Shown here piece by piece: positions 11,109 to 50,704 of a stretch of 64,000 nucleotides of DNA. Position 1 is the first letter of the stretch; every line of letters starts with the position of its first letter. The notes beneath the pieces are model-generated. The model did not search any database, was not told the DNA's origin, and worked only from the letters and a program-made list of their open reading frames with translations. A program made the translations under genes and the position numbers. Source of the stretch: Octopus vulgaris (taxonomy: Eukaryota). The stretch lies in the NCBI GenBank assembly GCA_951406725.2, contig OX597816.1, forward strand, positions 151,280,001-151,344,000. Reading direction: 5' to 3'.

Positions 11109-11501
11109 TCATTGTAGATCGTCCTTCTCAGAGACCTGTTCTTGTTGTTCCTGTACTTTTTGTAGTTTGGAGAGAAGAACATCGCCAAAAGAATTTCGGT
11201 ACTCGGGACTGACGTTGTCCAAGAGGCTGTAGATGGTCTCAAAATATTTGCCATTACTGACATTATCAAGGCTATCGAAATCATGACCGACTATTTGAAA
11301 ACCTTCTGTAGAAAGTTGTACGCAATACTTTTGGTTTTCTTTCGTGCGTAGATTGAGATAGATCAAGTTATCGGCCGAGGGAAGGACATCTGAAAGCTGC
11401 ACACATTTCACAGCATAAGCGATTTCATTTACAACCGACTCTGCCTCAATTTTTAGAGTATATTCCTCGTCGTCGCACAGAGTGGAATCGGTGTCTGCCA
11501 T
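11109..11501 (-). CDS. GSKIP: GSK3-beta interaction protein (GSKIP/DUF727), single coding exon, 130 aa
   Basis: ORF contains EAESVVNEIAYAV, IYLNLRTKENQKYCVQLSTEGFQIVG and YFETIYSLLDNVSPEYRNSFGDVLLSKL, which match my recollection of the GSKIP family; ATG to stop is intact. Confidence 0.93.
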   Translation of the reverse strand: MADTDSTLCDDEEYTLKIEAESVVNEIAYAVKCVQLSDVLPSADNLIYLNLRTKENQKYCVQLSTEGFQIVGHDFDSLDNVSNGKYFETIYSLLDNVSPEYRNSFGDVLLSKLQKVQEQQEQVSEKDDLQ

Positions 11502-11851
11502 TGTAACAGATAAGATTGTTTTGGCGTTTTAGAAATTGATAGAGATTCTTTTGAGTTAATTTCGTTTAGTTTAGTAAAATCACAGACTGGTTAAAAACTT
11601 TGGAAAAGTGTTTGTCGAGTCAATAAAATCTCCAAGATCACAGAATTTAAAACTTTTTTAAGGAATTATATGACATAAAAAATTAGATATGCTAAGAAAG
11701 TTAATAAAAGTATGAGACAGCCTCAACTCAAACGAATTTTTTTCTGTCTGACTCAATGAATGTGTGACGTCATGTTTACATTTCTTACCCTCTTCCTGGC
11801 GGTATTATCTATCACTACCACCATTCTGGAGGACAGTGGAAATTCCTCGCG
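11502..11851. promoter_or_regulatory. Putative bidirectional promoter between GSKIP and the THAP gene
   Basis: 350 bp between divergent ATGs. AP-1 site TGACTCA at 11749-11755, CRE palindrome TGACGTCA at 11765-11772 and forkhead-type TGTTTAC at 11774-11780. CpG is locally retained. Confidence 0.6.
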
Positions 11852-12071
11852 ATGGTTAACTTTTGTGCTGTTAACGGCTGTTCAAGTCGTGCAGATCGCG
11901 ATAGAGCTAACTCATTTTACCGTTTGCCAGCCATTATCACTAACCAAGGAGAAGAAACTAGAGAAAGATCGCGAAAACGTCGCGAACAATGGATAGCTAA
12001 TATTAATCGACCAGATTTAAAAGAGACCAGTTATGCATATGTCCGGGTGTGCTCAGATCATTTCATATCCG
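11852..12071 (+). CDS. THAP zinc-finger protein, coding exon 1
   Basis: MVNFCAVNGC...FYRLP...RREQWIANINR...RVCSDHFIS carries the C2CH THAP signature. Ends at donor G|GTAAGA (intron starts 12072, phase 1). Confidence 0.9.
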
Positions 12072-26867: not shown

Positions 26868-28123
26868 TGAGGTCATCCCATAAGTTCTGTCCGATTTTAC
26901 CTTTTTTAAAACTGAATGAAATTTAATAGTATTTTAGAATGTCTAATGGAATTAAAAAGTATTTTTATGCATTTGTGTACATTTAAACTAATTAAATATT
27001 ATTTTACAGAATAATAGAATTAAAATTTCTTTGATTAAAATCCTTTCTAACATGGAAGTATCCGAAGGCACATAATGCTTTATGAGTACAAAAAAGGAAA
27101 CTCTGCAGCTGAAGTGAGACAGAACATACACTCAGTTTATGGGAAAGAATGCTTGAATGAAAGAACTTGCAGAAGATGGTTTGCAAAATTCAGAAGTGGA
27201 GATTTCAGCCTTGAAGATGAAGATTGAACAGGACATCCAGTTGAGTTTGATGATAACTCCTTGAGGCATTACTTGAAGAAAATCCTACATTATCAGTCGA
27301 AGAATTGGCAATAAAGCTTAGTTCAAACCATACAACTGTTCATCGTCATCTTCAACAACTTGGAAAATGGGTGCCTCATGAATTGTCTGAAAGCAACCGC
27401 AAATCCCAAGTTGACATCTGCTCTTCTCTCCATTCTCGCGAATTCATTTCACCCTTTTTAGATAGACTTTTGACTGGTAACAAAAAATGGATCTTCTATT
27501 GAAATGTTAAACATAAACAGTGGCTTGGTAAAAGGGAAAAAGCTCAACCACAACCGAGAAGGGGACTTCATGGAAAAAAGGTTCTTCTCTCTGTCTGGTG
27601 GTATTGCAAAGGAGTAATTCACTTTGAATTGTTACCACCTAATGCAACAATCAATGCTCAAATCTACTGTCAACAATTAGAATGTTTGAACCAAGCTTTG
27701 AAGAAAAAAAAACCCCGCTTTAGTGAATCGAAAAGGAGTGATGTTTCATCAGGACAATGCGCGATCCCACACTGCAAAGATCACATCACAGAAGATCAAA
27801 GAGCTTGGTTAGGAAAAAATTCCTTATCTACCTTATTCTCCTGACCTTGCTCCTTCAGACTACCATTTGTTTTGTAGTTTACAGAATCATTTGGGGGACA
27901 TAACTTTCACATGCTAGGAGGAGGTCAAAACTGACATTTCAGAGTTCTTCACTTTAAAACCAAAAGAGTTTTACATTGATGGGATTAAAAAGCTTGTTAA
28001 TAGATGGAAGGAACTCATAAATAATCAGGGAAAGTACATTGATGATTAAATTTCAATTAGATATAACATTTGATCACTTGTTTTCTTATTCAAAATTCGG
28101 ACAGAACTTATAGGATGACCTGA
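26868..28123 (+). mobile_element. Full-length but inactivated mariner (Mos1/Hsmar-like) transposon
   Basis: About 30-bp TIRs (GAGGTCATCCCATAAGTTCTGTCCGATTTT / AAAATTCGGACAGAACTTATAGGATGACCTG), TA flanks, motifs WVPHEL, TGNKKWIFY, HQDNAR and YSPDLAPSDYHLF with stops and frameshifts. Confidence 0.95.
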
Positions 28124-30469: not shown

Positions 30470-30645
30470 GTGGCTGTGTAGTAAGTAGCTTGCTTACGAA
30501 CCACATAGTTCCGGGTTCAGTCCCACTGCATGGCACCTTGGGCAAGTGTCTTCTACTAGGGCCGACCAAAGCCTTTTGAGTAGATTTGGTAGACGGAAAC
30601 TGAAAGAAGCCCATCGTATATATGTGTGTGTATATATATATATAT
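30470..30645 (+). mobile_element. 5' half of a SINE; the 3' half is at 33290-33498
   Basis: tRNA-like head with B-box GGTTCAGTCCC, ending in (TA)n where the RTE begins. Confidence 0.75.
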
Positions 30646-32817
30646 ATACCTGGCTTTTGTTGATATGGAGAAAGCCTTCGACAGGGTCCCCCGATCCCTC
30701 ATCTGGTGGTCAATGAGGAAACTAGGGATAGATGAATGGTTAGTGAAAGCTGTACAAGCCATGTACAGAGACGCTGCTAGTAAGGTGAGGGTTGGCACCG
30801 AGTACAGTGAAGAATTCAGGGTAGAGGTTGGGGTCCACCAAGGCTCAGTCCTCAGTCCCCTCCTATTTATCATAGTCCTCCAGGCAATAACGGAGGAATT
30901 CAAGACAGGATGCCCCTGGGAGCTCCTCTATGCTGATGACCTTGCTCTAATTGCTGAGTCTCTATCAGAACTAGAGGAGAAGTTTCAGGTATGGAAACAA
31001 GGTTTAGAATCGAAGGGCCTTAGAATCAACCTAGCCAAAACCAAAGTCCTAATAAGTAGGAAGGTAGACCAATCACAAACGCCTTCAGGTAGATGGCCCT
31101 GCTCGATCTGTAGAAAAGGTGTAGGTAGAAACTCTATAAGATGCACCAAGTGTAAGCTATGGACACATAAGAGGTGCAGCAATGTCAAAGGAAGGCTAAC
31201 TAGGAAGATGGTTTTTGTATGTGGCAGATGCTCAGGAACAATTAACACTGAAGATGCTCTGAGACCAACTTCCGTCACTTTCCAGGGAGAAAAGCTAGAA
31301 GTAGTTGATAGTTTCCGTTACCTAGGTGACCAAGTCAGTAGCGGGGGCGGGTGCGCTGAGAGTATAACTGCTAGAGTAAGAATAGCCTGGGCAAAGTTTA
31401 GAGAGCTCTTACCTCTGCTGGTGACAAAAGGCCTCTCGCTCAAAGTAAAAGGCAGACTGTATGATGCATGTGTACGTACAGCCATGCTACATGGTAGTGA
31501 AACTTGGGCTGTGACTGCTGAGGATTTGCGTAAGCTCGCAAGAAATGAAGCTAGTATGCTCCGATGGATGTGTAACGTCAGTGTTCATAATCGACAGAGT
31601 GTAAGTACCTTGAGAGAAAAGTTGAACCTAAGAAGTATCAGTTGTTGTGTGCAAGAGAGACGTATGCGCTAGTATGGTCATGTGATGAGAATGGCTGAAG
31701 ATAGTTGTGTGCGAAAGTGCCACACCCTGGCAGTTGAGGGGACCTGTGGAAGAGGTAGACCCAGGAAAACCTGGGTCGAGGCGGTGAAGCACGACCTTCG
31801 AACTTTAGGTCTCACCAAGGAAATGACCAGTGACCGAGACCTTTGGAGGTATGCTGTGCGTGAGAAAACCCGGCAAGACCAGTGAGAACAGTCAAAATCA
31901 AGATCAAACCAAATTGAGGTCGATCAACATCAGGGCCCCCGTGCAGGCGACACGTAAAAGTACCATCCGTTCGTAGCCGTTCGCCAGCCCTGTCTGGCCC
32001 CCGTGTAGGTGGCACGTAAAAGCACCATCCGTTCGTGTTCGTTGCCAGCCTGGCCTGGCCCCCGTGCCGGTGACACGTAAAAGTACCATCCGTTTGTGGC
32101 CGTTTGCCAGCTCTGTCTGGCCCCCGTGCCGGTGGCACGTAAAAGCACCATCCGTTCGTGGCCGTTTGCCAGCTCTGTCTGGCCCCCGTGCCGGTGGCAC
32201 GTAAAAGCACCATCCGTTCGTGGCCGTTTGCCAGCCCTGTCTGGCCCCCATGTCGGTGACATGTAAAAGCACCATCCGTTCGTGTCCGTTGCCAGCCTCG
32301 CCTGGCCCCCGTGCCGGTGACACGTAAAAGCACCATCCGTTCGTGGCCGTTTGCCAGCCCTGTCTGGCCCCCATGTTGGTGGCATGTAAAAGCACCATCC
32401 GTTCATGCCCGTTGCCAGCCTCGCCTGGCCCCCGTGCCGGTGACACGTAAAAGCACCATCCATTTCGTGGCCGTTTGCCAGCTCTGTCTGGCCCTGTGTT
32501 GGTGGCACGTAAAAGCACCATCCGTTCGTGTCCGTTGCCAGCCTCGCCTGGCCCCGTGCCGGTGACACGTAAAAGCACCATCCGTTCGTGGCCATTTGCC
32601 AGCTCTGTCTGGCACCTGTGCAGGTGGCAGGTAAAAAGCACCCACTACACTCACGGAGTAGTTGGCGTTAGGAAGGGCATCCAGCCGTAGAAACACTGCC
32701 AGATCTGACTGGGCCTGATGAAGCCTTCCAGCTTCACAGACCCCAGTTGAACCGTCCAACCCATGCTAGCATGGAGAACGGACGCTAAATGATGATGATG
32801 ATGATGATGATGATGAT
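30646..32817 (+). mobile_element. 5'-truncated, young RTE-clade LINE (RT with PHD-like finger), 3'UTR tandem array and (GAT)n tail
   Basis: AFVDMEKAFDRV, GVHQGSVLSPLLF, LLYADDL, FRYLG, R*YGHV (a single TAG at 31670 where TGG is expected) and GRGRPRKTW. Stop at 31885; (GAT)n ends at 32817. Confidence 0.95.
31930..32645 (+). repeat. GC-rich minisatellite of about 12 x 60-62 bp within the RTE 3'UTR
   Basis: Unit ..GTGCCGGTG(G/A)CACGTAAAAGCACCATCCGTTCGTG(G/T)CCGTT(T)GCCAGC..TGGCCCCC. Confidence 0.93.
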
Positions 32818-35093: not shown

Positions 35094-35836
35094 GAAAATC
35101 TGCTACTCTATATGAAACGGCAAACCCCGATTGGGCTCCAACTCTTCGACTTGGTCGTGATCGTGCAAAGGATTTCCAAGCTGGTTCAGTCCGAGGTAAG
35201 ACAAAACGCAAAAGAAAATTGGATTCCAGCTCTGATGATACACTGTTTGCTCTGTCTGTTTGCAATTCTGAATTGCAACAAAGATGTCAATCCCTCACAA
35301 ATGTTGGATCTGAATCTTACCGAAAAGCAGTTCACAAATTTCTTGAAACAAAAGAAGTTATGGATTTATTAATGCTACCAGATGAAGTTTTTTCAAGTCA
35401 ACCTCCTTGTGAGCCAATTCGGGGAGAAATTTACCTCATGAAAATAGATCCTTCACAGGAATCCAGTGACTGGACTAAAGATGGCTACTCTTGGTTAAGT
35501 TTAGGATCGAATGATTTAATCTTGAATCAGAGCCCTGCTCTGCGTCAAAGTACTTTTCGAATGTTAGTTAATGAGATTGAAACTTGTCTGCTAAAACATG
35601 TTTATCGTTCTTTTAATAATAACCAAAAAGTTGTCATTCATTATGTTACTGATGAAAGACTTAGTAACAGTAAGTCTTATCCACATTCTATGGACATCAC
35701 TGGAACTTCATCAGTACCACAAACCCATTTAGGAATTACTCAGTATTACCACCAGCTAGTGGAAGATTGTAATGTTGACAGTCAGAAATCATCTGAGGCT
35801 CTCTGGGAGATGGCCCCCACCAACAAGGAGAAATCT
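35094..35836 (+). CDS. THAP gene exon 2: end of THAP domain, basic NLS-like patch, CG-1-like domain
   Basis: Acceptor ttctattttacag|GA is phase 1 and gives ...[25 protein letters not shown] (AVPTIF-box equivalent). The frame continues into the 35219 ORF: KTKRKRK, PPCEPIRGEIYL, DWTKDGYSW, KHVY...VVIHYVTDE. Donor TCT|GTAAGT at 35837 is phase 0; unspliced read-through stops at 35845. Confidence 0.82.
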
Positions 35837-42585: not shown

Positions 42586-43699
42586 GATGCTTGGAGGTCA
42601 GTTATTGAAGGGTTGGTGAAAGCTTCTCTACTTGTTGGATGTTTTTTTGTGAATACTCCATTTTCTACTTATGAGAACAGTAACTCATTGATGCACACGA
42701 GGCAGTGAATAAGCAAAATCATTACAGCATCAGACAAAAGGAGTGGTGGCACTTGTTCTGGTTCATTGCATTCTGAGTTCAAAGCAGTGGATTAATAGAA
42801 TTGTTAGATTTTAGGATAAAATGTTTTACAGTATTTGTTCTAGTTCTTTACGTTCTGAGTGCCTAGGAAGGTGTGGCAGTTTGTATCTAGCCAACAAGAG
42901 GTACCATGTAAAAAAATTTTTTTTTTAATCCAAAAGAAGGTAACAAGAAAACACCTCTATAATCCCACAAAATTTCCATAAGCATATAACGCAAGTCAAA
43001 GAAGCCATTATTTGTTTACCGACCTCATCACGTAAGGAAGAAACTTATCTTTTAGGGAGTTACTAAGCGTTCATGCCTGCAGTATCTTGATACTGGTGCA
43101 AGAGAGAAAACAGGGCGGAGGTAAAGCATACATACACAACCCGTTTTCGGCGTAACAAAAACCCTAACCCTAAACACCGGTGTACATATTCCTTACTTTA
43201 GCCGAAAACAGCTTTTGTAATCAAAACTGGGCGGCTTCCTTAAAAAGTTACGTTATGAAGATTGTCAGACTTGGTATATAAAGGTTTTAGATGTCTATAT
43301 ACTAGTTAAAAGCGACCTGGGTGTGCTGCACTTTTCAACTATATATATATGTAGCCAGCATATGTTACATGCTGGCTACTTGAAATCTTATATAGTTTTT
43401 ATCCTTGATTTTATATATATATAGTGATCATGTTCTCGTGTTTTGATGCTGTTAAGCAGAGCTAAGTTATCACATACAGACTGCTGAATGAATATGCAAG
43501 TATGCATGTTTGAGATTGATGTGAAGAAAAATCAAGTTTGCCGAGAGAGGTGTGCGATGAAGCAGAGTGACCATGTCAAAGATGTACAATTCAATAAGAA
43601 ACATGCATAAAAATGGTTTTCTCTGAACTTTCAAATCAAAATTATATTTCTGTATGCTAAGTAAATTTAAATTTTAAGCGTTTTTGCAATAACTATCAC

Positions 43700-44344
43700 T
43701 ACATCATGCGGAAGGAAAAGAGCGAGAAATTGGTGTTTTCTTCCTTTTAAAAATTGCTTTTAGTATTTTCGTGTTTCACACAACGGAAGTACAATTCTGA
43801 AAGCAATATTATCGGAAATTCCGTGCCTTTTTCTTTGTCATGAAGTTAGTGAAAGCTATTCCCAAGCGCCGTCCAGTTTTTATACAAAAGGATGACATAA
43901 TCAGATCCATTTGCAAATCAAATTTCCGAATTTATTTTTAAAACTTACGGCGATACGCCAAACTTACTGTTGTGGCAAAGAATTTACTCTGAAGAGACCC
44001 AGGTAACTTTTCAATTTAGGGAGAAAATATTTCACCAAAACAAATACAACAAAACTTCTGCAAGTTGTTATTAACGACAACTGTTAGAAGAGTTCTAAAC
44101 ACAAATTATTCCGGAACACAGCAACCGGATGTCTAACAGAATAATAAAGACTAATAAACCTGACACACCATCAGTTGATTCACATGCGGATGAATACAAT
44201 GTTTACGCCAAATGAGTTTCCGTGTGTATTTCACATGTACTGTTAACAGACATGTCTTGTTGTGATACCCTCTTCCTGAGAGGTACTCCATAAATTCTCA
44301 GTCCTTTCTTTCCTTTTTTTTTTTTTACTTTGCTACCCATAAAT
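43700..44344 (+). promoter_or_regulatory. Putative internal promoter/5'UTR upstream of the HTH exon
   Basis: CpG-retaining, TE-free stretch with several CGGAA ETS-like cores (e.g. ACGGAAGT near 43783) and a possible donor CAG|GTAACT at 44003. Confidence 0.4.
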
Positions 44345-44890
44345 ATGCAAAGACTAAATAACACGACTGCATATAAAACGTCTTCTGGTAATAAAGTTGC
44401 GGGAGGTGAATGTAAAAGAAAAGCTATAACGCTTGAAGAGAAGCTAGATGTAATACAGCGTTTTGAACGTAATGAAAGAACATGTGATATTGTTCGTGCA
44501 ACGGGAATAAAAGAGTCTACTCTACGCACCATTAGAGACAATGCCGAAAAAATTAAAGCTAGCTATATTGCTGGAACAAGCCTCAGTGCTTGCAAATCTG
44601 TAAGATCGCGACCAAGGGAACTTGAGGAGATGGAGCGGCTTTTATGTTTGTGGTTAGAAGATCAATCAGAAAAACTATCTGGAACAAGCTTTCTCACTAT
44701 AAAAGAAAAAGCTTTATCAATTTATGAAGACCTGAAGAAGAAAGCCGAAAACCCGGCAATCGTGCCTGCTTTTAGTGCTAGTAGTGGCTGGTTTGTTGGT
44801 TTTAAGAATCGTTATACTTTTTATAATGTGAGGTGTGGTGGTGAAGTTCTTAATACACACGAGGAACGTGCTATGACATTTCGTCCTAAG
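44345..44890 (+). CDS. CENP-B/Tigger(pogo)-type DNA-binding exon (HTH_psq-like plus CENP-B HTH), no DDE domain
   Basis: KRKAITLEEKLDVI...IKESTLRTI...EEMERLLCLWLEDQ...IKEKALSIYEDL...FSASSGWFVGFKNRY is typical of Tigger transposase N-termini. Intact ORF ending at donor AAG|GTACTG (phase 0). Confidence 0.85.
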
Positions 44891-45422
44891 GTACTGTAAC
44901 ACGTATTTCATTAAGACATGTAAATTAAACATTCGTTCACAAATCACTTTTTCCAATACATAATTTTTCTTTTTTTATTCTTGCACAAAATCGAGACTAT
45001 TGCTTTATCTCTGTCCCAAAACCGATAAATATATAATCCTTTGTTTGTTCTTTTTATAGAAGCCAAATTTGATCGTTATAAAAGTGTATTGCATTAATAA
45101 TAATATATAATGCAGTAAGGATTTGTTACTACTGACATTATATTTTAAACCTATTTATGGTAAATATTACCTTCTAATATCCCATAGTATTTTGACAAGT
45201 TTTCCAAAGTGGTTTATCTCTCTCTCTGTCTCTCTATTTCACCATTTCATGCATCATGCAAACAATACTTTTGTGTTCGCGATACACAACACTCGCAGAG
45301 TTGATGTTAGAAAATAAAGAGAAATAACTCATCCTGGAAAAGTTGGCAATATAAAGGGATGTCTAAAAGTAACAATTTCATAGATTAATATCAAAAGTGA
45401 TAAAGACAATTTTTCTTTTCAG

Positions 45423-45862
45423 CCTCTAGCACACCAACAGCGTTCACCTTTGGCTATTTCTGATTTGAATCAACCGGTGGAATTCAGTTCATCTGACCAG
45501 TTAAAAGTCAATTCTAACAACGATATACAAAAGGCTATTCAACCTTTCAACATGAATGATGTGCATCTTTCTAGTCGATCTATCATTGATATTGAACAAA
45601 CTGGGAGATCTTTCGGAGTAAAACCTCGCATGAAACGGCTTCCTAAATTGAAACGCCAATTTGGATCCGGAGCTAAAGATTTATCAGTGAACAGATCTCA
45701 TTTATCTCAGAGGCCATCCAACCAAATTAGATCTCATCAGCGATGGATAAAAGAATCTACTGGTAATTCTTCTGTTGGAGAGCAGCATTTTGACGTAGTT
45801 TTAAATAAAAATTCTGTAGAATACAATTCAAAAGTACCAAAAATTAACAGCAATTCAATAGC
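45423..45862 (+). CDS. Linker exon of the BTB gene (polar/basic, probably disordered)
   Basis: Acceptor ttttcttttcag|CCT (phase 0), open frame PLAHQQRSPLAISD...NSNSI, donor GC|GTAAGT (phase 2). Confidence 0.78.
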
Positions 45863-46108
45863 GTAAGTGTCTTAAAAACATTTTTTTTCTTTCAAAGAGA
45901 AATCTACTTTTCGTTTTGTGTGTATAAAATGACAAATTGTTTTATCTTAATGTGTAACATTTCACTTTTATATAATACAGATGATATTTTCTGTTAGATA
46001 TATAAACTATCAAATATTTTATTATATAATGTATCAATATTCAGTTTTGATGCATTTTATATTCGAAAACATTTCGATTTCATTGATAACAATTTATTTT
46101 ATTTAAAG

Positions 46109-46289
46109 TCATTCCCTGTCTGATGAAGTCGTAGTTCTTCCACAATCAACTATACCAGCTGTTCAGAAAGAGAAACGTACTTTAGTTGTACCAAATCACC
46201 AAGTAGCAGTAATGTCCAATCTATTCTCTATGTGGAAAGTTGGGCGTTTGTGTGACTCGTATATTAGTAATGGTACCACAAATGTAATG
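46109..46289 (+). CDS. BTB/POZ domain, N-terminal exon (not in the supplied ORF track)
   Basis: Acceptor ttttatttaaag|T (phase 2). Reads HSLSDEVVVLP...PNHQVAVMSNLFSMWKVGRLCDSYISNGTTNVM, i.e. BTB helix 1 and the LCD motif. Donor ATG|GTATGT (phase 0). Confidence 0.85.
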
Positions 46290-46832
46290 GTATGTATGTT
46301 ATAATTGTTTATCCCTTTTACTCAGTATAAAATTTACATTTTACAATACTAATGAATCATTAAAGATATATTTATAATATTGGTACAGTAAAATAAGCTG
46401 GTATAATTTAATATGTCAGAATTCTGATCTAGTTCAAAAAAGAAAGTTATGGATGTCTATGTCATTGAAATAACATGTTGACGGAAAGATCAGTAGTTCA
46501 AAATACTATCTAGTGTCTCTTAAGTCTCAATGACAATTTTCAGTTAGATGTCATTAGAAGATGCAAGTGCCACAAGTAGTAAGTATACTGTGTAATAAAT
46601 AACTTGTTGTTCTGAGTCTAAATCTTCTTATTGGTAAAACATGCAAAAGAATAACATTCCTATCCAATACTGGAAAATATCTGTGATTTCAAATCTGAGT
46701 AAAATTGCTGCATACTTTACCTACTACTTGGGATGTTTCTCAGCCAGACAATATACACAAGTATTTATGCGGTAGGATCTAACTGAAATTAAATTTAAGT
46801 TCCATTTCTTAAATGCTCTTCTCTCGGTTTTG

Positions 46833-46940
46833 TCAATATCAATGATGGATCAACTAGAAAGATGCACATCATTCATGTTGAAAGGTTGAATAGCCTTTTG
46901 TATATTGTTGTTGACTTTTAACTGGTCAGATGAACTGAAT
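46833..46940 (-). repeat. Intronic inverted copy of exon sequence 45482-45595
   Basis: Reverse complement aligns by eye with 3 substitutions and one 6-nt gap. Confidence 0.93.
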
Positions 46941-47029
46941 CTTTAAAAAATGTGTGCATTGTAGAGAATTTCAAATAGCATTTAGCAATATATAAAGCAT
47001 GTTTTTACCACATTTATTTTATCTTTCAG

Positions 47030-48067
47030 GTTCATAAAATGGTTTTGGGAGCTGTGTGTCCAAAAGTATTGCCCATTCTATATAACACCTCAAGTAGTTT
47101 GTTTCCTAAAGTGACATTTCCAAGTTCAGTCAGTAAAGAAGCACTTTTAGCATTTGCAGAATACATGTACAGTGGTGTGTTAGATCTGAATGAAGATATT
47201 CTAGTGCAGCTGAAAACTATTGGTGAGAGATTAGATATGAAAGATTTTGAACAACTTTGTAGTAATGAATTGAACAAAGCTAAGACTAAAGATATTTTAT
47301 CAGCTGTGGTGGAACCTTTGTTGGCAGAACCTTGTTCTTTATCAGGATTACTCCCTTCCAGAACACATGGAGACTCTAATGAGGTTCAGAACTCTATGTT
47401 AATGAAGATACTTGGAAATATTTACAGCAATAATAGCATGCAAACTGATGTTCCTGTTACCATTGCATCAACATCTGCATCCAGTTCTTCTTCTGTTTCT
47501 GATGTAAGGTCTGCAGAAAATATGGCTACAGACCAGATTGTTGATATCAAAACTGAAGTGGAATCAGAAATAGAGCCTGCAACAAACCACAACTCTCTAC
47601 AATTAAAAATGGAACCGTGTAGTCCTGGTGAAAATCAATATAGTATTCAAGAAGAATTATTCATGGATATTAGCAACATTACTTCCAATAATAATCTTCA
47701 TCTAACACCTGGTACCAGTGCCACTTCTGGAAATATCATCAATAACCAGTATAGAAATGATCTAAATATGGATTCCAATGATATCATCAATATATCTGAT
47801 ATCCCTCAATCTGAAGAGACTTGTTTATCCCAGCATACTGAAGATTGTGATAAAGATACTGATAATCAGAAAGAACTACAGTTAATTTCAGTAACATCTG
47901 CCACAGGGAATATAAGTGAAGACAGTCTCAGTAATAATTCTGATTTGATAGAGATCTCCAGTACCATATGTACAGAACCCCCACCAACATCAAATTCTAG
48001 ACCATACCCTGTAAGTTTATTTTCTGTGAATGGCAGTAAAATTCCAACTACATTACCAGATAGCTGA
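47030..48067 (+). CDS. BTB/POZ domain remainder plus Ser/Asn/acidic low-complexity C-terminus
   Basis: Acceptor ttttatctttcag|GTT gives VHKMVLGAVCP...ALLAFAEYMYSGVLDL...GERLDMKDFEQLC. Stop at 48065-48067, or an alternative donor CCT|GTAAGT at 48011. Contains psi-K-x-E motifs IKTE and LKME. Confidence 0.88.
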   Translation, partial: VHKMVLGAVCPKVLPILYNTSSSLFPKVTFPSSVSKEALLAFAEYMYSGVLDLNEDILVQLKTIGERLDMKDFEQLCSNELNKAKTKDILSAVVEPLLAEPCSLSGLLPSRTHGDSNEVQNSMLMKILGNIYSNNSMQTDVPVTIASTSASSSSSVSDVRSAENMATDQIVDIKTEVESEIEPATNHNSLQLKMEPCSPGENQYSIQEELFMDISNITSNNNLHLTPGTSATSGNIINNQYRNDLNMDSNDIINISDIPQSEETCLSQHTEDCDKDTDNQKELQLISVTSATGNISEDSLSNNSDLIEISSTICTEPPPTSNSRPYPVSLFSVNGSKIPTTLPDS

Positions 48068-49070
48068 ACATATTTGTTGGATCTGTTCCCGATTTAATAG
48101 GTTTGTGTTTCATTTTCTTCCAGTACTCTATTGTATTTATTAAGAGTTCTTATATAATGAGCAAGAAATCTAACTTCATCATCTCAAAAAATTAGAAAAG
48201 TCTATTTTTTCTTTAACAAAGTAGGAAATTGTTTATTAGAAATGATTAAAAATGATAGTAAGATATCCATATATGTTAGATTTGATGCATGTACATTAGA
48301 TTTGGTGTAAAATTGTAACTTTTCACACTGTTAAACTTCTGTTATTATCTTAAATTTATTAATATTGATGCAGGTGTGTCTGTTCCTGCCTACATAGTTT
48401 AGAATCCAGTCCCACTGTGTGGAACCTTGGGAAAGTATCTTCTACTATAAGTCTTGGGCCAACCAAATCGTGTGAGTGGCTTTCATAGGCAGAAACTGAA
48501 AGAAGGCCCATCATGCATGTGTATGTAATATATAGTTAAGAAGTACGCTTTCCAACCAGATGATTTCAGGTTTAGTCTCAATGCATGGGACCTTGGGCAA
48601 GTGTCTTCTACTATAGCTCCAGGCCAACTGAAGCATTGTGAGTTGATTTGGTAGATAGAATTTGAAAGAAGCCTATCTTGTTTGTGTGTATTTATTTTCT
48701 AAAATCCCTCATCACTCAATGGCTTAATTTTTGTGTGTGTGTATGTTTGCATCTCTTTTTTTTTTGACATAACATGATAGCTGTAAATAAATATCACTGT
48801 TATACAAGCAATATTCTGTGAAAACATGTCTGACCATGGGGAAAATATTACCTTGCTTGGTAACAGGTGAGGGTTGGTGACTGAAAGGGCATCCAACCAT
48901 AGAAAATCTGCCTCAGTAAACTCTTTTCAACTCGTGTGAGCATGGAAAAGTGGATGTTAAAATATTGATGATTGATTGACGATGATATGTATATACATAT
49001 ATGTGTATGTATGTATATCTATATAGGTATGTGTGTATATATGTATGTATTTGTATATATTATACATATA

Positions 49071-49291
49071 TATGAGAGAGTGCTGAAAAATTCCTGGCTT
49101 TGGGTAAAATAAAATACAGGCAGATCAATTAATTATGATTTTATTCAACATATTCCCCTCTCAGATTTACACACTTATTGCAGCAGCCCTTCAGTTTTTC
49201 TAAGCTCTGTAAAAGAACTTGGAAGATTGGGCCTCCAACTAGGCCTTTCACAAAACCCTTAGAGGCAGGAACTTTTCAGCACCACCTTGTA
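49071..49291. mobile_element. Mariner-derived MITE inserted in a SINE microsatellite
   Basis: TATGAGAGAGTGCTGAAAAATTCCTG...CAGGAACTTTTCAGCACCACCTTGTA termini. Confidence 0.7.
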
Positions 49292-50689
49292 TGTCTGTGT
49301 ATATTTCTGTGTCCTTGTTTTGACATCATGTAATAGCTGTAAGTGATTGTCACTATCATCAAGCCATGTCATTAATTTTCAATATTCTGTGAAATGTTTG
49401 ACCATGGGGAAATATTACTTTGCTTGGAAACAGGTGAGGGTTGGTGATAACAGCATCTGCCTCAGTAAACTCCATTTGATCTGTGCACACATGGACAAGT
49501 GGACATTAAAACAATGATGGTGACACTGGTGATGATAGTTTTTAGAGGAAGTTGTCAGAAACTTACTTCTGTCATTTCCAATTTATATTGTTCAATTATT
49601 AAGACTCATTATGTTATCTCATTATTGGTTTCAAATTTTGGCACAGGGCCAGAAATTTCAGAGGAGAGTGTAAGTCAGTTACATCAACCCCAATATTCAA
49701 CATCATTATCATCAACATTTCACATCCATTTTCCATGCTGGCATGAATTGAACAGCTTGACAAGAACTGGCAAGACCAGGGGCTGCACCAGGTTCCATAG
49801 TCTGTTTTGGTTTGGTTCATACACATGGATGCCCTTCCTTACACCAACATCTCCATAGTGTACTGGGTGCTTTTGAATGTAAATTTGGAAGAAATGCTTG
49901 GTGCGGTAACTATTCTGCTAGCTCACAGCCCTTTAAAGTTATCTAATTATTAAAACTTATTTTCTAAACATTCCTCATTATTTGTTGACTTAATTTTTAT
50001 TACTTATCAATATTAAAATTTGTATTGATATATTCTTTATATCTACAATCTTATACAATACAAAGCTAGTATAGAAAATAGATTAATTTGCTTGTACTTT
50101 CCAAAAAAATGAATAAGATGTTTTAATTGTTCATGGAATATGTGTAATATATTATTGAGACAGAAAAAAGAAATGTTAAACTCATTTATTTGTTTACATT
50201 AGTCATTTAATTTCCCTACTAATAATTATATCTAATATGGCTTTTCTATATAAGGCAACAAGCTGGCAGAATCGTTAGCATACCAAACAAGATGCTTTGT
50301 GGCATTTCATCTATCTTTATGTTCTGAGTTCAAATTCCACCTTTTATCCTTGGGGTTGATAAAATGATTACCAGTTGAACATGAGGGTTGATTTACACTG
50401 TCCCTTGAAATTACTGGCCGTGAGCCAAAATTTGAAACCAATATGACTTTTCTATTTATAATGTTTCAGTATAATAAAGTATCACGCATTTTATGATTTT
50501 TACTGCAACAATTCAGAACATCATAGCATTTTTTTAATTAACTTATTTCAGATTTCATTAAAAAGCTAAAATCTACAACTTATTTATATAGAAAACAAAA
50601 CATTTGATAACCATTTAGTATTGTCTGTTAAAGTTTACATTTGTTTACTTAAGGTATTTTATGCTCACAGGTTTCTGTTTTAATTGCAG

Positions 50690-50704
50690 AGTGACCAAAA
50701 CTAG
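50690..50704 (+). CDS. Possible short terminal exon (SDQN*) of the BTB gene if the 48011 donor is used
   Basis: Acceptor gtttctgttttaattgcag|AGT GAC CAA AAC TAG lies in TE-poor sequence that could be 3'UTR. Support is splice signals only. Confidence 0.25.
   Translation, partial: SDQN

Follow-up and report, generated by a model that had tools for sequence, protein, structure and literature searches.

The window analyzed here, a 64,000-nucleotide stretch of the Octopus vulgaris genome (GCA_951406725.2, contig OX597816.1, positions 151,280,001 to 151,344,000, forward strand), carries on its plus strand a gene in which a Tigger/pogo-type helix-turn-helix (HTH) exon is spliced to exons encoding a BTB domain.

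The HTH-BTB gene and its two probable heads

The gene has four coding exons (Table 1). All introns were of the GT..AG type with phases 0, 2, and 0, and the joined frame was open over 734 amino acids (aa), in agreement with the exon model of an original prediction made from the letters alone. The product is ordered as a CENP-B-type HTH pair, a linker, a BTB domain, and a tail. Pfam placed CENP-B_N at residues 24 to 72 and HTH_Tnp_Tc5 at residues 94 to 158, both above their curated cut-offs, and BTB at residues 371 to 472, where intron 3 interrupts it. Each of the three junctions, among them the 44890^45423 junction that the original prediction had singled out for checking, was bridged by contigs in four of four runs from four studies. 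These runs carry the label 'RNA?' and were taken as RNA because spliced joints are present in them; none of the runs listed is recorded as RNA, which was given no weight as evidence, and contig depths were not used for ranking isoforms. Over the part searched, the 734-aa protein was identical to a database entry labelled LOC115209549 isoform X2 of Octopus sinensis. The gene is longer than originally described, ending at a stop codon at 48067 and reaching upstream to 11852 through a second variable N-terminal region, hereafter a head.

This second head, THAP + CG-1, is joined to the same acceptor at 45423 by database models in three Octopus species. Isoforms X1 (THAP) and X2 (HTH) are on record in both O. 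sinensis and Octopus bimaculoides, and X1 in O. vulgaris; THAP-isoform splice sites in the window reproduced the X1 database protein (P0003), with an in-frame join to 45423. The CG-1 match was weak (E = 0.0013, below the curated cut-off). The same THAP-CG-1-BTB order was found in P0014, with 74 of 91 residues identical in THAP, 98 of 121 in BTB, and 32 of 147 in the linker, and P0014 was, by eye, a near-match to the named cuttlefish protein P0011; judged by sequence, the THAP form of the gene is old. In P0014's cluster, P0071 places a ZSWIM3_N-type head on the same CG-1 exon, and this head had no match upstream of the window gene. No further head was detected between 12071 and 44345 by 40 head queries or by a scan for open reading frames (ORFs) of at least 85 aa, which shorter or unfamiliar heads could escape. 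A constant-exon contig began exactly at 45423 in three of the four runs, which is what a branch point of two heads would give, a hint only. The HTH exon thus seems to be an alternative first exon, and with the THAP + CG-1 head it would provide the gene with two interchangeable front ends.

Given that both heads were found in CpG-rich zones and the internal CG-1 exon was not (CpG observed/expected (o/e) ratio 0.43), and that HTH-exon contigs continued unspliced upstream to 44201-44224 in three of four runs, we infer two promoters. The ratio reached 0.74 to 1.13 at 10 to 14 kb, around the THAP first exon, against a regional background median of about 0.3. Similar DNA accompanies heads across related genes described below: 32 of 33 isoform starts could be mapped, all of them in sense, with an ATG, and upstream of a BTB in their own cluster, and CpG o/e upstream of these starts had a median of 0.99 vs. 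0.32 for background, 28 of the 32 lying above the background upper quartile. A 7-/8-mer test returned no dominant motif that could represent a shared promoter element upstream of the heads, the best 7-mer occurring at 9 of 32 starts. Head-to-head with the THAP first exon, in a shared CpG-rich zone, lies an ORF encoding a GSKIP domain (11112-11528, minus strand; Pfam E = 1e-33); the shared zone is a candidate bidirectional promoter.

Table 1. Coordinates of the variable heads, constant exons, and associated features (window positions unless a chromosome is given).
Feature	Position	Strand	Evidence or remark
Variable head 1: CENP-B_N + HTH_Tnp_Tc5, coding part of first exon; phase-0 donor, ends before any DDE	44345..44890	+	Pfam and contigs
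Variable head 2, exon a: THAP zinc finger, N-terminal portion; phase-1 donor	11852..12071	+	Pfam THAP; database model
Variable head 2, exon b: THAP end + CG-1-like domain; phase-0 donor to 45423	35094..35836	+	Pfam, database model; P0014
Constant exon 1: low-confidence, likely disordered linker; acceptor common to both heads	45423..45862	+	
Constant exon 2: BTB N-terminal extension and first BTB elements	46109..46289	+	
Constant exon 3, coding part: remaining BTB and low-confidence tail, to stop codon	47030..48067	+	
IKTE, SUMO-consensus-like, residues 562-565	47546..47557	+	
LKMEP, psi-K-x-E-P motif kept across the family, residues 581-585	47603..47617	+	
YPVSLF, C-terminal motif kept in otherwise divergent tails; candidate cofactor-binding site	48005..48022	+	
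CpG-rich, promoter-like zone around head 1, CpG o/e 0.73-0.90	43001..46000	.	Promoter role inferred
Nested shared exons of the large paralog	G000:C3:149197378-149197473 and 149268069-149268119	-	

Several minor features accompany these exons. A likely intron of the 3' untranslated region spans 48101-50689 (plus strand), 34 bases past the stop codon: the contig match ends at 48100-48101 and one database model resumes at 50690. Within intron 3, an inverted, degenerate copy of part of exon 2 (46820-46942, minus strand; one stop, 83% aa identity) has the potential to base-pair with that exon before splicing. In the THAP isoform, the long first intron contains a reverse transcriptase fragment of the long interspersed nuclear element type (30593-31669, plus strand), a mariner-type partial DDE (27503-27841, plus strand), and a tandem repeat (31800-32770).

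Transposon traits of the HTH head, the BTB fold, and tail motifs

Head 1 carries the DNA-binding pair characteristic of Tigger/pogo transposons, and its closest PDB sequence match was CENP-B (1hlv). Pfam detected no DDE_1 catalytic domain in the 734-aa protein, and six Tigger-like queries, two of them carrying DDE_1, found no DDE remnant in 43000-49000. Among the 25 longest of the 34 inverted repeats listed there was no convincing pair of terminal inverted repeats, the sole perfect one being an AT run. These data agree with the original description of an intact two-HTH exon without DDE or visible terminal repeats. The HTH exon DNA gave a single genome match, whereas a comparable search with a true, DDE_1-bearing Tigger ORF gave 47, a result that contradicts the multi-copy transposon fragment that the original prediction had set against its own view. 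An active or recent Tigger copy was likewise ruled out by the single DNA match and the lack of a DDE remnant and of convincing terminal repeats. Among 146 other matches of the protein, the best was 40% identical and none exceeded 44% (150 of 666 candidates were scored), and many of these dispersed relatives contain stops. The exon aligned to residues 8 to 173 of the Tigger ORF, whose DDE_1 begins at residue 224. The HTH head was 28 to 35% identical to the six other HTH heads compared, and its core was identical to that of O. bimaculoides at 135 of 135 residues; from such comparisons, selection on the head is weakly shown. Such a Tigger/pogo-type HTH pair, present in single copy and spliced in front of BTB, is consistent with transposase capture.

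An AlphaFold model, which was poor outside BTB (mean predicted local distance difference test (pLDDT) 48.6) and was used for BTB only, showed a BTB with an N-terminal extension formed by a strand (353-355) and a helix (365-373), both of which were used in the dimer model. Top fold matches were ZBTB9, PLZF, LRF, and BCL6, with the KLHL-type proteins Keap1 and NS1-BP scoring alike, and no C-terminal C2H2 zinc fingers of ZBTB-type factors were detected by Pfam. The BTB homodimer model scored 0.75 vs. 0.00 for the best control (pLDDT 87; at least 95% of contacts agreeing between runs), a mark that 21 of 30 solved pairs and none of 23 single chains attained (17 of 29 and 0 of 30 for eukaryotes only). 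This pass is probably owed to likeness to solved BTB dimers.

IKTE and LKME, at residues 562 and 581, are where the original prediction had reported them, and we take both to be SUMO-consensus-like sites. K582, E584, and P585 were invariant in 13 of 13 alignment rows. Among 29 family tails, a hand-picked set of related sequences, the psi-K-x-E-P motif was found in 21, vs. at most 2.6% of shuffles per tail, and a loose YPVxLF-like pattern in 20. The tail motifs fit recruitment of SUMO and cofactors.

BTB paralogs with unrelated heads in cephalopods

Chromosome C3 carries 17 tandem BTB paralogs, among them the window gene, in two clusters, five at 151.27-151.38 Mb and 12 at 148.96-149.17 Mb, and additional BTB exon copies occur on other chromosomes. 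ORFs upstream of these paralogs matched THAP, CENP-B HTH, Brinker, psq, FLYWCH, DUF3504, STPR, ZSWIM3_N, CG-1, and Tc1-type HTH domains. Heads were in sense to BTB for 20 of 20 THAP and 9 of 11 HTH matches, the two antisense cases being adjacent pieces in one intron, in a count for which both strands were scanned with profiles built partly from the family heads themselves. Because the heads belong to unrelated families, they are not, overall, duplicated paralogs of each other, although some THAP heads are duplicates. The downstream neighbor of the window gene had three heads in two species. In O. bimaculoides, isoform numbering of the paralog LOC106877732 runs up to X36; the 17 isoforms examined had 534 C-terminal residues in common, and a DNA-binding Pfam family was found above cut-off in 13, weakly in one, and not in three.

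In a 10-kb stretch of the locus of this large paralog, contigs from three RNA-type runs joined three GT-AG donors to a single acceptor, and two loose contig ends matched further heads by eye; run X15, continuous over this stretch, showed none of the three joints. Of the mapped starts, 18 lie upstream of that acceptor, spread over 175 kb. Several half-THAP heads of this paralog are completed by one common exon, and a second shared exon lies further upstream (Table 1). Several first exons on one acceptor were thus found by contig joints in this paralog, and in the window gene by contigs for one head and by database models for the other. The window gene is better read as a small, two-headed member of a swappable-head coleoid BTB family than as a lone fusion, and the cephalopod family likely builds many gene regulators from few loci.

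All named close relatives of the family were from Octopus, Argonauta, or cuttlefish, and proteins of the cuttlefish cluster also differed in their heads (P0127, THAP; P0257, FLYWCH). Weaker profile matches in Lymnaea, Babylonia, and Haliotis had an internal BTB and no transposon-type Pfam domain, and the profile matches obtained did not show a swappable-head design outside coleoids. In P0151 (Lymnaea) and P0165 (Babylonia), which match the family profile weakly, BTB lies far from the N terminus; a deeper origin of the family is possible from such proteins.

Other observations within the family concern individual heads. An intact 392-aa ORF with HTH and DDE_3 domains (L043:3479-4654, plus strand) lies upstream of a neighboring BTB paralog and is placed in BTB isoforms by the O. 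bimaculoides models P0122 and P0289, so that a whole transposase may have been fused there. STPR-repeat heads occur on many paralogs (L016:877-1398, L017:4412-5065, L018:8069-8608, and several minus-cluster paralogs), and Helitron remnants were found in the same cluster; that the STPR heads came from Helitrons is speculation. The O. bimaculoides proteins P0047, P0048, and P0099 carry THAP heads with 22 dispersed relatives in the O. vulgaris genome, 10 with stops and none in the array, possibly reflecting recent species-specific capture or model error. In database models P0012 and P0027, a head is joined to the BTB of the adjacent paralog instead of its own, through read-through, trans-splicing, or model error.

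Proposed origin of the heads, alternatives, and precedents

Taken together, these data make it probable, in our judgment, that the locus is an expressed host gene in which a Tigger/pogo-type HTH exon sits on shared BTB exons as, likely, one of two first exons, each likely with its own promoter, yielding two transcription factors predicted to bind different DNA. The original proposal of a transposase-capture fusion holds in that a single-copy HTH exon is spliced before BTB; what has changed is that the fusion is not a one-off, with two alternative heads according to database models, in a family that as a rule has transposon-type domains at the N terminus. DNA transposons would have landed in sense orientation ahead of a BTB gene, keeping their start and DNA-binding part and gaining a splice donor before the catalytic domain, between HTH and DDE. 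Promoter choice would select the head and the head would pick the DNA site. The BTB is predicted to dimerise, whereby mixed HTH/THAP dimers would become possible, and SUMO and cofactors would probably be recruited through the tail. Repetition of this capture process would have built the coleoid BTB family, with no fewer than 18 heads mapped to a single constant region at its largest locus.

Several points weigh against this explanation. The THAP-to-45423 junction of the window gene rests on database models, and the joint sides in the large-paralog contigs were only 23 to 29 letters. In a tree with one of 11 inner branches well supported, the HTH head grouped with no transposon family, and its best relative is 40% identical. 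In the comparison with O. bimaculoides, the rest of the protein was nearly as conserved as the HTH core, at 97 to 98% identity (143 of 147 residues in the linker, 249 of 255 in the tail). No ortholog of the HTH head outside Octopus was present among 313 proteins, a set not gathered for that purpose.

Among published systems, the closest design is that of Drosophila mod(mdg4) and lola, where, as in the Octopus family, one constant BTB is combined with many isoform-specific DNA-binding domains, including FLYWCH (PMC11426971). Those isoforms vary at the C terminus, have a TTK-type BTB, and use trans-splicing (PMC11426971), whereas Octopus heads are N-terminal, derive from many transposon families, show no FxLRWN motif by eye, and fit cis-splicing. 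That heads of the Octopus genes are joined to BTB exons partly or wholly by trans-splicing is nonetheless suggested by this precedent, by the location of heads in their own promoter-like DNA, and by the models that join a head to a neighboring paralog's BTB. Contigs alone cannot separate cis from trans, but each of the 32 mapped starts shares the strand of BTB and precedes a BTB in its cluster, which cis-splicing explains, and we regard trans-splicing as very improbable.

An exon-shuffling fusion as originally proposed, taken as a one-off, would give a single HTH-BTB repressor, the THAP model being read-through from a separate upstream gene. The HTH junction is the one directly shown by contigs, the THAP exons lie 10 to 33 kb upstream, and database models P0012 and P0027 of these clusters do join neighboring genes. 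Against this, records of three Octopus species contain the THAP + CG-1 + BTB protein and P0014 conserves it, the donor that closes the CG-1 exon is in frame, and paralogs have the same multi-head layout with contig support; we consider such a lone fusion very improbable. Least credible is the view of the HTH isoform as a side product that is tolerated, in which the promoter and donor of a decayed transposon splice into the gene with no selected function: the head was not seen outside Octopus among the proteins collected (with the limit on that set given above), but its frame is intact and single-copy with no relative above 44% identity, its 135-residue core is unchanged in a second species while many dispersed relatives carry stops, and its junction was found in all four runs.

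We return to the capture of alternative heads by a shared BTB gene, for which partial precedents exist. Mukherjee and Moroz (2023) noted the presence of BTB in the majority of the CENP-B and THAP factors of Octopus (PMC10027918). Their 'CENPB BTB' and 'THAP BTB' proteins are the same family, with the window gene's ortholog LOC106872000 listed as 'THAP BTB' and LOC106877732 listed in 11 rows, and it is BTB that is regarded there as the transposon part (PMC10027918). The word 'isoform' appears 0 times in the text and supplements and 'alternative' 0 times in the text, the supplements having been searched for five terms only, and shared constant exons are not described in the parts covered. A transposon- or integrase-type domain N-terminal to BTB, as here, is also known from KCTD1 isoform b (PMC3212892), which arose as a new transcript variant by insertion upstream of a host gene, and from ZBTB11 (PMC12062965); these are single captures of other domains, not arrays of interchangeable heads. 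The reversed HTH-before-BTB order put forward in the original prediction is real, but less new given these Octopus proteins and the KCTD1b and ZBTB11 precedents.

The analogy that the original prediction drew with KRAB-transposase fusions such as POGK held only in part. In KRABINER, as here, a transposase DNA-binding domain on its own exon is spliced to a host regulatory domain (bioRxiv 10.1101/2020.05.07.082677). However, the geometry is opposite: KRAB, the host domain, comes first and a splice acceptor captures a full-length transposase behind it, and repression has been demonstrated for KRABINER. Pfam found no KRAB domain in the window gene's protein. Tandem variable first exons on common downstream exons, as here, are known from UGT1, GCNT2, and the clustered protocadherins (PMC1885805, PMC3325998), where they diversified by duplication (birth-and-death), whereas the Octopus heads are unrelated and the product is a candidate transcription factor. 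In design, the family resembles an inverted mod(mdg4)/lola, and its layout is that of UGT1 or protocadherin loci; it is a full member of none of the groups KCTD1b/ZBTB11, KRABINER, mod(mdg4)/lola, or UGT1/protocadherin. The domain architecture is already in print; for the variable-first-exon organization of Octopus BTB genes, no account was found in the literature searched, which covered few subscription papers.

If this explanation is correct, cephalopods possess an overlooked means of multiplying transcription factors, in which one constant pairing domain is combined with many transposon-derived DNA-binding heads chosen by promoter, and a single locus where older and younger heads are neighbors allows transposase capture to be tested as a recurrent process. 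Some of the THAP and CENP-B 'genes' counted in Octopus may then be isoforms of a few loci. More tentatively, coleoid BTB loci may act as a 'transposase trap' that keeps recruiting new transposon heads, with BTB pairing mixing them into a combinatorial library of regulators that binds transposon ends genome-wide, in a role like that of KRAB zinc fingers in tetrapods; we think this extension doubtful as yet. A hint of continuing capture is given by two O. bimaculoides isoforms that start with a THAP domain having 22 dispersed O. vulgaris relatives, 10 of them with stops.

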